Origin: a virus
Reading direction: 5' to 3' (one strand)
Virus genome (UHGV): UHGV-0094578
DNA length: 31,822 nt
Notes under the pieces: generated by a model
The model's database searches: none
The model's input: only the letters and a program-made list of their open reading frames with translations
What the model was told of the DNA's origin: nothing
Part shown: positions 1,674-31,772 of the stretch, piece by piece
How the letters are laid out: each line of letters begins with the position of its first letter
Numbering within the stretch: the stretch's first letter is position 1
Program-made: the position numbers and the translations under genes

Positions 1674-1708
1674 AGCGAATCCATAAATCTCGGTTCGAGA
1701 AATTAAAA

Positions 1709-1737
1709 TTGACACTTCTCGAAACGCGAATTAATCT
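1709..1737 (+). promoter_or_regulatory. candidate rightward early (lytic) promoter pR
   Basis: TTGACA (1709-1714), 17-nt spacer, TAATCT (1732-1737), upstream of apl/cII. A convergent leftward promoter for cI is expected nearby but could not be placed confidently. Confidence 0.4.
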
Positions 1738-1768
1738 GGCTCCATATTTCGAATGTTGCCTTATATAA

Positions 1769-1786
1769 CCCTGTATTGCCGTACAG
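1769..1786. promoter_or_regulatory. operator-like inverted repeat CCTGTA-N6-TACAGG in the cI/apl switch region
   Basis: Perfect 6-bp arms; its core also reads CTGT-N8-ACAG (1770-1785). Confidence 0.35.
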
Positions 1787-1808
1787 GTTAACTTGTGGAG
1801 TTTGCCTC

Positions 1809-3585: not shown

Positions 3586-3652
3586 TTAACCGCCTGAATT
3601 TTTGGGCCATGTTTCAAGTGGCCGGGGATTCTTTTGCCTTAAGGAAACCAAA

Positions 3653-6837: not shown

Positions 6838-6859
6838 TATACTGGATACTTATCCAGTC
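6838..6859 (+). promoter_or_regulatory. SOS-box-like operator overlapping -10-like hexamers
   Basis: TACTGGATACTTATCCAGTC (6840-6859) fits the LexA consensus TACTGT-N8-ACAGTA at 15 of 20 positions with invariant CTG/CAG and an AT-rich spacer. TATACT at 6838-6843 overlaps it. Lies 22 bp upstream of the 6881 ATG. Confidence 0.4.
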
Positions 6860-6880
6860 ACTATTGCTTGTGGGGGCTAA

Positions 6881-7087
6881 ATGGATCTTTTGGAGGCGTC
6901 GGCACAGCTGGAACGCATTGAGTTATTAGCTAAAATTGCCCATGATTACGAAAGTAACCAGAGAGAAAAAACAATCGCTTTGGCCTGGATTGGAGAACTT
7001 GCGGAAGAGGTTCACAAAATGGTTAGAAAGGAAGGGAAAAGCCCTCATTCTGGGGGCTTTTTAGGCAGCGGGAGTCACTTTCAGTAA
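6881..7087 (+). CDS. small hypothetical protein (68 aa), possibly SOS-regulated (position of 186 tum)
   Basis: ATG 6881 with GGGGG Shine-Dalgarno; sits between A and the cos-proximal region, where 186 carries LexA-controlled tum. No sequence-level identification. Confidence 0.5.
   Translation: MDLLEASAQLERIELLAKIAHDYESNQREKTIALAWIGELAEEVHKMVRKEGKSPHSGGFLGSGSHFQ
7037..7061. terminator. candidate bidirectional terminator hairpin between convergent genes
   Basis: AAAAGCCC / GGGCTTTT stem (7037-7044, 7054-7061) around a 9-nt loop, A-run on one side and T-run on the other, at the 3' ends of the 68-aa ORF and ogr. Confidence 0.4.
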
Positions 7088-30139: not shown

Positions 30140-31171
30140 ATGTCAAAACGAATTGTATTCTTCAATCATAAAGGTGGTGTAAGTAAAACAACATCAGTTT
30201 ACAATCTTGGATGGATGCTAGCTAACCAGCATAGAGTCTTGGTTGTAGACGGCGACCCTCAATGTAATCTTTCAAGCTTAATTTTAGGGGATGGTTTCGA
30301 AGAATATTATACGAATCCATTAACCCAAAAGCAGAACTTGAAGGATGGCGTTGCAGTCGCTTTCAAAGGTAAACCACAACCAATAACACCTATTACTTGT
30401 GTATCACCTGATAGAACTGCTAATCTTTTTTTATTGCCTGGGCATGCAGATCTTTCTGCTTATGAAGCATCATTAACTTTTGCACAAACATCAGGAAATG
30501 CTTTAGCAACCTTACAAAACCTACCGGGAGCATTTTCGGAATTAATAAGGCTATGTGAAGAACGCTATAATATCGATTATACGCTTATTGATTTAAACCC
30601 GGGGTTAAGTTCAATCAATCAGAACCTTTTCTTAAGTGCAGATGCTTTCATCATACCAACAAATCCAGATCCATTTTCAATCATGGCTATTGATACATTA
30701 AAAGATGTCTTGCCACGATGGATGGAATGGAAACAAAATAATCTTGATTTTTTTGAAGACAGTGCATATCCACTGAGAAACTCGCAAACAAAATTTTTAG
30801 GTATGCTGATCCAGCGATTTAATATAAGGAAGGGAAGAGCGGCAAGACCGTATCGAGATAACATCGCGGAAATCAAGCGTAAGGTCGTCGAAGATCTTGT
30901 TCCTCGTTTGCAGACTGTAGGAATGGCATTAAATTTGAATCAATATCCTCAAGAATTGCTTGATAATAACTTTTGCTTGTCGGAGATACCTGATTTTCAG
31001 GGACTTTTACCAAAGTCTTATGCGGCTGAAGTGCCTGTTTTTGCCCTTCGTGATGAAGATATTAATGAGACCGGGCCAGTTTTTGAACAGATGGCTGCAA
31101 AAAGAGATATGTTTAAAGCTCAATTTGAAGAATTATCTGAAATAATACTTAGGACTCTTGAAAATGTCTAG
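30140..31171 (+). CDS. ParA/MinD-fold P-loop ATPase with C-terminal extension
   Basis: Deviant Walker A NHKGGVSKTT, Walker A' VLVVDGDPQCN, Walker B-like YTLIDLNPG; 343 aa; AT-rich. Confidence 0.8.
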   Translation: MSKRIVFFNHKGGVSKTTSVYNLGWMLANQHRVLVVDGDPQCNLSSLILGDGFEEYYTNPLTQKQNLKDGVAVAFKGKPQPITPITCVSPDRTANLFLLPGHADLSAYEASLTFAQTSGNALATLQNLPGAFSELIRLCEERYNIDYTLIDLNPGLSSINQNLFLSADAFIIPTNPDPFSIMAIDTLKDVLPRWMEWKQNNLDFFEDSAYPLRNSQTKFLGMLIQRFNIRKGRAARPYRDNIAEIKRKVVEDLVPRLQTVGMALNLNQYPQELLDNNFCLSEIPDFQGLLPKSYAAEVPVFALRDEDINETGPVFEQMAAKRDMFKAQFEELSEIILRTLENV

Positions 31172-31772
31172 AGCTCATATAATTTTCAAAAAAAATATTG
31201 AGGAGGCGAAGCAGCTAAACGCATTACATACATATTTGTCTAATAACATACAAGTGCCTATGTCACATGATGATATTCTGCGCGCGCAATTAGTTAACTG
31301 TGTAAGCGCTTTTGATAAACTCATTCATGATTTAATACTTGATGGATTGACAGATATGTATGTAGGTAAGAGACAGCAAACTCCTAAATTTTTAGGTGAA
31401 GTGTTGCCGTTAAATGTGTATTTTAAATTACAAAATGCAACTATGCCGCCACCGGAGTATCATTTTCGTGAAGCGATGCGAGCAAAACTTAAAACAATTT
31501 CTTATCAGGAACCTTCGAAAGTCGCTGAAGGCTTGGCTTATATATGGGATGAGGGGCAGAAATGGGTAAAAATAGCTCAAGTAATGGGTTCTAAAGATGA
31601 TTTAGTAAAAAAACAACTTAAACTTATAGCAGTAAGGCGAAATGCAATTGTGCATGAGGCTGATTTAGACCCTGTAACTCATCAAAAACTTAGTATTGAC
31701 TCAAGAATGGTTACTGATAGTTCAAATTTCTTGGAACAATGCGGCGATGCAATAGAAAGTTTGGTATCTTAA
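31164..31772 (+). CDS. hypothetical protein with HEPN-like R-x4-H motif (putative RNase effector)
   Basis: ATG 31164 overlaps the ParA-like stop (31169-31171) with AGGA Shine-Dalgarno; motif RNAIVH at residues 161-166 of the track ORF (DNA 31638-31655). Confidence 0.5.
   Translation: MSRAHIIFKKNIEEAKQLNALHTYLSNNIQVPMSHDDILRAQLVNCVSAFDKLIHDLILDGLTDMYVGKRQQTPKFLGEVLPLNVYFKLQNATMPPPEYHFREAMRAKLKTISYQEPSKVAEGLAYIWDEGQKWVKIAQVMGSKDDLVKKQLKLIAVRRNAIVHEADLDPVTHQKLSIDSRMVTDSSNFLEQCGDAIESLVS

Follow-up and report, generated by a model that had tools for sequence, protein, structure and literature searches.

Switches of the 186 type are a textbook model of transcriptional interference between face-to-face promoters, and existing descriptions rely solely on three DNA-binding proteins (CI, Apl and CII) and on polymerase traffic. 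In coliphage 186, interference at pL is ascribed mainly to a sitting-duck mechanism, and the concept of pause-enhanced promoter occlusion comes from lambda PR/PRE (PMC6593788). The Apl operators are 6-bp direct repeats at a spacing of one helical turn, and proteins of the Apl family bind such direct repeats as monomers (PMC7498355). Here we analyse a switch of this type in the UHGV virus genome UHGV-0094578, whose 31,822 nucleotides we call the window. Its cI-apl intergenic region (1674-1808) holds a short palindrome at 1770-1787. On balance we take this palindrome to be a conserved RNA hairpin in the early lytic (pR) leader, built around an Apl/Cox motif, and neither an SOS box nor a CI operator; we regard this as probable rather than firm. 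A conserved stem-loop at this place suggests an RNA-level layer of control (Apl dosage, message stability or pausing) that is absent from current models.

The locus resembles the 186 switch in many respects: the gene order (int-cI and apl-cII-fil), a 186-type CI with 45% identity, a first lytic gene of the Cox/Apl family, the offsets of the predicted pL hexamers from the apl ATG, operator-like TTGCC repeats spaced by helical turns in the promoter interval, and, beyond the replicase gene, a LexA-like box followed by a Tum-like gene. It differs from 186 in that a direct BLASTP comparison finds no similarity between the two Apl proteins, only about 49 bp separate its predicted start sites (62 bp in 186), and its operator motif TTGCC is on the + strand, whereas the 186 pR-pL interval has TGGCAA. 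In geometry only, the locus also recalls the tR1 pauses of lambda PR/PRE, where the nascent RNA of the strong lytic promoter forms a structure shortly before polymerase reaches a convergent lysogenic promoter, but the hairpin described here has no U-tract and the pyrimidine-G step is only partly conserved.

Lambda boxB/nut and the stabiliser or insulator hairpins of 5' untranslated regions (5'-UTRs) combine a short covarying stem with a conserved loop in an early leader. The element shares with hairpins of the boxB/nut type a covarying stem of 5-7 bp, a short conserved loop and a place in the leader of an early transcript. Unlike them, it is present in a single copy, has no known N-like partner, and has a loop whose conservation is already explained by a DNA operator; unlike the 5'-UTR stabilisers and insulators, it does not lie at the primary 5' end. 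The 186 record describes no RNA stem-loop, the word hairpin occurs 0 times in PMC7498355, and a literature search that did not cover Dodd & Egan 2002 found no hairpin described for 186 or P2-type switches. The element would be an undescribed RNA stem-loop acting in cis in the pR leader, within the pR/pL overlap, with a function that we infer.

A stem of fixed position with compensated changes

On the + strand, the stem-loop consists of the arms CCTGTA (1770-1775) and TACAGG (1782-1787) around the loop TTGCCG (1776-1781); according to a fold prediction for the window, U1776 and G1781 can form a wobble pair in + strand RNA, which leaves UGCC as a tetraloop. The initial annotation had called it a perfect inverted repeat, which is true of the 6-bp arms but not of the 6-nt centre, which is non-palindromic. 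A 6+6 inverted repeat is ordinary in this region, where 11 inverted pairs occur within 261 nt. The core CTGT-N8-ACAG (1771-1786, with half-sites CTGTAT and GTACAG) is the sole exact match in the window, and 0.58 matches are expected by chance, with at least one in 49 of 100 shuffles. Taken alone, neither pR nor the palindrome exceeds chance, and the significance of the palindrome therefore rests solely on its relatives.

Relatives were gathered through the Apl-like protein, in E. coli genomes, GTDB species genomes and IMG/VR, in two sets: 49 distinct 24-mers anchored on the loop and, later, 120 distinct sequences. In the first set, double changes occurred in all 7 pairs and 84.8% of the cells were paired (63.1% in shuffles); the 80 double-change cells (26 in shuffles) were reached by 0 of 500 shuffles, and control registers slid along the sequences were 16-39% paired. 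An unanchored MAFFT alignment of the 72-nt leaders gave the same helix in RNAalifold, with compensation in all 5 pairs. In the larger set, 108 of the 120 distinct relatives had Watson-Crick pairing at no fewer than four of the five inner positions, built from 24 different 5-bp stems (CTGTA/TACAG, CGATA/TATCG, GGATA/TATCC, GAGCG/CGCTC, GAATG/CATTC and GAACT/AGTTC are examples), and pairing reached 91.9% (shuffles, 61.6% +/- 1.2%). In almost every relative, 33-35 nt separate the start of the loop from the apl ATG. Position is fixed relative to apl and the predicted pL, whereas the leader upstream of the stem differs between immunity classes. A covariance model made from the 49 sequences found a single match in the window, at 1767-1790 (E = 6e-5), the next best having E > 1.

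The stem, with its fixed position and compensated changes, is independent of both the CI class and the sequence of Apl. Since clustering of the CI N-terminus at 60% identity was uninformative (72 of 96 sequences fell in one cluster), classes were defined by clustering the pR/operator DNA instead. The CCTGTA/TACAGG arms occur with at least 7 of these pR/operator classes, and up to 6 arm types are found within one class. Similarly, the identical Apl protein WP_001247709.1 goes with CCTGTA or with CCGATA arms in different prophages. A chance palindrome without function would fit the abundance of 6+6 repeats and an overall leader fold no better than that of shuffles, but it is hardly credible given that 108 of 120 distinct relatives preserve the pairing, at one fixed position and with 24 different stems.

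The same comparison bears on LexA, since direct SOS input into the switch had been left open by the initial annotation. By binding CTGT-N8-ACAG between pR and pL, LexA would couple the switch directly to DNA damage. The palindrome shares with the SOS box TACTGTATATATATACAGTA the exact core and the half-sites CTGTAT and GTACAG, ranks third in the window in a scan by heterology index (HI), and lies inside both predicted transcribed leaders, so that a bound protein could be a roadblock. It differs from the SOS box in its GC-rich centre, in the absence of flanking TA, in its HI and in a core that is not conserved among relatives. With an approximate matrix built on 27 published SOS boxes of E. coli, the 20-mer at 1769-1788 had an HI of 12.0, above the 0.9-11.2 of the known boxes (leave-one-out); a site of this quality occurs about once per shuffled window, and the core itself is a match of the kind expected by chance. 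Only 13 of the 108 hairpin-bearing distinct relatives carry CTGTA/TACAG, and the other arm types (CGATA, GGATA, GAGCG, GAATG, GAACT and others), where scored, gave HI values of 27-41 with pairing kept. LexA cannot therefore be what conserves the element. Moreover, a much better box, TACTGGATACTTATCCAGTC, lies elsewhere in the phage, at 6840-6859. We consider a LexA site at the palindrome very improbable, although weak LexA binding to the CTGTA variant may occur. The LexA reading of the switch palindrome is most probably a false lead, and the likely entry of the SOS signal is redirected to 6840-7087.

The probable RNA strand and the putative operators nearby

An inverted repeat pairs on either strand, but a G-T combination is tolerated only in the RNA in which it reads as G-U. 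Taken over the 108 hairpins, the five inner pairs give 540 cells, which comprise 531 Watson-Crick pairs, 8 G-T or T-G pairs (read on the + strand), 0 A-C pairs and 1 other mismatch; the 8 wobble cells represent about 6 lineages. The anchoring had given equal scores to the wobbles of either strand (GU+ and GU-). In addition, loop position 6 is a G in 32 of 49 hairpin copies and in only 4 of 49 at the matching base after the upstream operator copy, a bias that fits a U-G pair closing the tetraloop on + strand RNA. Mean hairpin stability was -7.4 kcal/mol on the + strand, -6.6 on the - strand and -2.2 in shuffles, and the + strand was the more stable in 31 sequences against 14 (Wilcoxon p = 0.002, uncorrected for relatedness). 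The pattern of wobbles, the loop-6 G and the stability bias favour a rightward transcript, from the predicted pR, as the carrier of the hairpin.

The hairpin could also work on leftward RNAs, either as a 5' stabiliser of the pL (cI-int) message or as a kissing-loop partner between the sense and antisense transcripts of pR and pL. Hairpins close to the 5' end are known to stabilise mRNAs, and antisense systems typically make loop-loop contacts. In keeping with such roles, the hairpin lies 6 nt from the predicted pL start, and the - strand also folds, with the mean stability given above. On that strand, however, the inner wobbles become A-C and weaken the hairpin in about 6 lineages, the loop-6 G benefits the + strand only, and stability is lower in 31 of 45 informative cases. 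Because of this strand bias, leftward or kissing-loop roles seem less likely, and we hold them to be improbable.

The loop is best understood at the DNA level. Repeats of the Apl/Cox operator type can be recognised on the + strand between 1756 and 1807: TTGCCT (1756-1761), a weak TAACCC (1766-1771), TTGCCG (1776-1781, the loop) and TTGCCT (1802-1807). Relatives conserve the motif ATTG(C/A)C both at the loop and in a second register 20 nt upstream of it, and many of them have 2-4 tandem 10-bp units ATTGCCnnnn, the last one at the hairpin. Loop variants among the hairpins include TTGCCG (45), TTGGCG (27), TTGCTG (9), TTACCG (6) and others. In 186, the annotated Apl operators read TGGCAA in the pR-pL interval and TTGCCA in attP, with a spacing of 10-11 bp, and the loop motif is identical to TTGCCA at 5 of 6 positions. 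We read the loop as one unit of a putative Apl/Cox-type operator array between the promoters, because its motif resembles the 186 operators, its spacing is that of a helical turn and the two proteins share phrog_575. That the loop is conserved, while the stem varies with pairing kept, would follow from its coincidence with an operator unit. On the att side, where the search extended to the end of the window 49 nt beyond int, there was no other cluster of the motif in the window and no clear array in the 167-bp mntS-int interval of a related prophage, L002.

It is less easy to attribute the arms to Apl as well, with the whole 18-mer as a protein site. The centre does fit an Apl-type motif, and the pR-pL interval of 186 is filled with Apl operators (PMC7498355); yet Apl-family proteins bind direct repeats as monomers and not palindromes (PMC7498355), one identical Apl protein goes with differing arms, and 24 stems are found although Apl is 81-100% conserved. 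We give this explanation very little credence. The proposal of the initial annotation that the palindrome is a CI or Apl operator is therefore retained for the TTGCCG centre, which resembles an Apl-type site, and not for the arms, which change with compensation and independently of the CI class.

In its pR-pL interval, 186 itself has a different inverted repeat (record 23069-23111; 2070-2112 of L006), which is formed by GCAATTGAT and ATCAATTGC, with 9-bp arms 25 nt apart, and encloses Apl operators. Several compensated changes (G:C to A:T, C:G to T:A) occur in six relatives. The comparison within the 186 clade comprises 7 sequences, too few to judge, and the palindromic operator TTGCAA explains part of the pattern; 186 may have an analogous stem.

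The probable CI operators of the window lie at 1684-1733, where an inverted repeat, TTCGAGAA (1694-1701) and TTCTCGAA (1716-1723), flanks the -35 hexamer of pR within longer arms (1684-1701 and 1716-1733), with an extra TTCGAA at 1748-1753. This stretch differs by immunity class among relatives, whereas the arms of the palindrome vary independently of class. By analogy with the annotation of 186, CI would act at operators around pR, away from the palindrome. The arms might still provide a weak, poorly defined contact over pL, letting a CI wheel wrap the DNA and repress pL along with pR. In 186, protection by CI runs about 60 bp to the right of the pR operators, over pL and on poorly defined sequences (PMC3675496), and the palindrome lies in the equivalent zone of a phage whose CI is 45% identical to 186 CI. 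We nevertheless find such a contact quite improbable: the arms are unlike the TTCGAG/TTCTCG repeats at pR, their type is unlinked to the pR/operator class, the same arms occur in a prophage with a different cI/pR module (junction near 1751), and a protein site would not prefer G-T over A-C on one strand.

Possible roles of the hairpin in the pR leader

We infer that transcription from pR includes the element and that it works in cis, on the pR RNA itself. The stem of 5-8 bp, with a loop of 6 nt (or 4 nt with U-G closure), would form in the leader of the pR to apl-cII-fil message, 9 nt upstream of the apl ribosome-binding site and within the overlap of about 50 bp between pR and pL. The mechanism that we place first, tentatively, is a leader structure that sets the expression of apl. 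If the AU-rich leader upstream is cleaved, the hairpin could protect the message against decay that depends on the 5' end, or it could insulate the apl ribosome-binding site from an upstream leader that varies between immunity modules.

In a second mechanism, which we regard as unlikely, polymerase would pause about 10 nt past the hairpin, and the nascent hairpin would stabilise that pause. Such a pause would park pR polymerases on the -10/+1 region of pL and so strengthen transcriptional interference. More broadly, we see only a small chance of co-transcriptional control, in which the hairpin either pauses polymerase over the pL -10/+1 region or modifies it, in the manner of nut or put sites, to pass early terminators. 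If this were true, the loop would double as a DNA operator for Apl, and 18 nt would carry both an operator and an RNA signal. In its pausing version this would be pause-enhanced occlusion, an RNA-encoded grip of the lytic promoter on the lysogenic one. A nut-like role is weakened by the lack of a second copy in the window. We excluded an intrinsic terminator because the tail, TTAACTTGTGG, has no U-tract; none was called in 1500-2200.

Several points weigh against the interpretation of the palindrome as a hairpin of the pR leader. Some concern the statistics: relatives share phylogeny, so that the comparison with shuffles overstates their independence, and the 24-mers were anchored by best pairing, which leaves some bias towards pairing, though the unanchored alignment agrees. 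The strand argument depends on only about 6 independent wobble events, and the two outer pairs contain wobbles of both types as well as mismatches. As both strands pair, the repeat may act in leftward RNAs or in single-stranded DNA. Others concern the fold itself: the hairpin is weak (about -7 to -8 kcal/mol), the pR leader as a whole folds no better than shuffles (z = -0.04), and a search of 1500-2200 against Rfam gave no match up to E = 10. The start sites of pR and pL are both predictions. A role as stabiliser suits poorly a hairpin that is not at the primary 5' end but at about +27, and the pause model draws no real support from the leaders, of which only 29 of 45 have a pyrimidine before GGAG. 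Finally, 12 of the 120 distinct relatives have no stem, and the hairpin is therefore dispensable in some backgrounds.

In two of the sequences without a hairpin, L196 and L197, its place some 60 nt before apl (locus positions ~250-285) is taken by three direct repeats of 11 bp, TATTGAGTAG, which by their sequence look like an operator array minus the stem. The 120-mer of the - strand folds with z = -2.4, mostly due to the inverted repeat of the CI operators and not to the hairpin. Part of the hairpin, GTATTGCCG..TACAGGT (1773-1788), is repeated inside apl as GTATTGCCGCCGTACTGGT (1862-1880). We rejected a function for this direct repeat, which is probably due to chance: its synonymous sites vary (TAT in 62, TAC in 29).

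Promoters, genes and other features of the window

The window is an E. coli temperate prophage of the 186-like group (Peduoviridae), with the immunity and early region at its left end. The nearest named phage is ESSI2_ev015 (Peduoviridae, Quadragintavirus; 76.5% identity), and the switch region was found in 32 of 5426 complete E. coli genomes. The genes follow the order int (50-1090, - strand), cI (1092-1673, - strand), a 73-aa gene (1809-2030, + strand), cII (2061-2564) and fil (2574-2747), and a replicase gene of P2/186 type follows. The cI gene starts at an ATG at 1673 and is read leftward, with int downstream; its 193-aa product, identified from the open reading frame (ORF) list, Pfam and identity to 186 CI, has both repressor domains (Phage_CI_repr, PF07022, at 6.4e-23; Phage_CI_C, PF16452, at 3.5e-31). 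Pfam also identified CII (CP76, PF06892) and Fil (PF10893). The 73-aa product of the first gene of the rightward operon is Apl-like: it matches phrog_575, 'Cox-like excisionase and repressor', at E = 1.5e-27, and 186 Apl falls in the same PHROG at 2.8e-9. There was no Pfam match for this protein and, as said above, no direct BLASTP similarity to 186 Apl. RefSeq E. coli records label this Apl/Cox-like first lytic gene (e.g., WP_001247709.1) as 'hypothetical protein' or 'regulator' despite the strong match to PHROG 575. The flanking gene order and the protein family matches identify 1674-1808 as the cI/apl intergenic switch region, and the assignment of this interval to a lysis-lysogeny switch, here of 186 type, is borne out by a CI with both domains, a first gene of the Cox/Apl family, CII and Fil.

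The pR-like promoter (1709-1737, + strand) consists of a -35 TTGACA (1709-1714), a 17-nt spacer and a -10 TAATCT (1732-1737), with a start predicted near A1744. The sequence is indeed present and its -35 matches the consensus at 6/6 positions, but to call it near-consensus, as the initial annotation did, was an overstatement for a -10 that matches at only 3/6 (T1, A2, T6); a consensus promoter scan called neither the pR nor the pL candidate. The hexamers TTGAC(A/T) and TAA(T/C)CT are kept across several immunity classes despite quite different 17-nt spacers. This retention supports TTGACA-N17-TAATCT as the rightward, pR counterpart, and it fits a promoter that has repressor operators both within and beside it.

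Related E. coli prophages (L002 and hits H69-H74) reveal a mosaic junction at about 1751: they share the sequence from 1751 onward at 96% identity, including the hairpin and apl, but differ in the cI gene and in the pR/operator region. Recombination of the immunity module therefore takes place shortly after the predicted pR start. Just past the pR -10, CTCC(A) at 1740-1744 is complementary to the (T)GGAG of the apl Shine-Dalgarno sequence (1796-1800). The purine/pyrimidine bases that flank CTCC and GGAG co-vary in part of the relatives only (CTCCG with CGGAG), and the CTCC is probably upstream of the pR start; a long-range pairing between the two was set aside on these grounds.

The pL-like promoter is read from the - strand (1799-1827), with a -35 TTGTAA (TTACAA at 1822-1827 on the + strand), a 17-nt spacer and a -10 CAAACT (AGTTTG at 1799-1804 on the + strand). 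In the annotated pL of 186, the -10 lies at ATG-10 to ATG-5, the -35 at ATG+13 to ATG+18 and the start at ATG-16; the offsets of the hexamers in the window are identical, and by this homology the pL start is predicted near 1792-1793. The predicted pL -35 falls in apl codons 5-6 (ATT ACA), which are invariant in 92 of 92 distinct coding sequences, and the neighbouring Pro codons and other Thr codons use all synonyms. The Shine-Dalgarno sequence of apl, GGAG (1797-1800, + strand), lies 9 nt downstream of the hairpin, where GGAGTTTGCC is nearly invariant, and begins 12 nt upstream of the ATG in 45 of 49 distinct leaders. With these predicted starts, pR and pL would face each other and their transcripts would overlap by about 50 nt. 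The hairpin would occupy about +27 to +44 of the pR RNA and +7 to +24 of the pL RNA.

The best LexA-like site of the window is the box at 6840-6859 (HI 6.3), which overlaps a -10-like hexamer, TATACT (6838-6843), and is followed 22 nt later by a 68-aa ORF (6881-7087) that belongs to phrog_698, a family of unknown function. Over 32 aa, the product of this ORF shows weak similarity to the N-terminal part of 186 Tum (34% identity, pairwise E = 2e-6), and the place of the ORF just after the replicase gene is that of p95/LexA/tum in 186. The LexA box and the Tum-like gene (6840-7087) are thus the likely entry point of the SOS signal, which suggests that SOS input into the switch is most likely indirect, as in 186.

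Two further features deserve mention. Just upstream of the next early gene, GGCCA-N9-TGGCC followed by GGGGATTCTTTTG (3607-3640) corresponds to the position of tR1 in 186, which the 186 record gives as anti-terminated; the terminator scan made no call there. At the right end, a cassette of low GC content (34-38%; 30140-31772) encodes a ParA/MinD-like AAA_31 ATPase (343 aa) and then a HEPN RiboL-PSP protein (204 aa). Its only PADLOC match is a weak one, to PDC-M28B at 2.9e-7, and the cassette is possibly anti-phage or toxin cargo.

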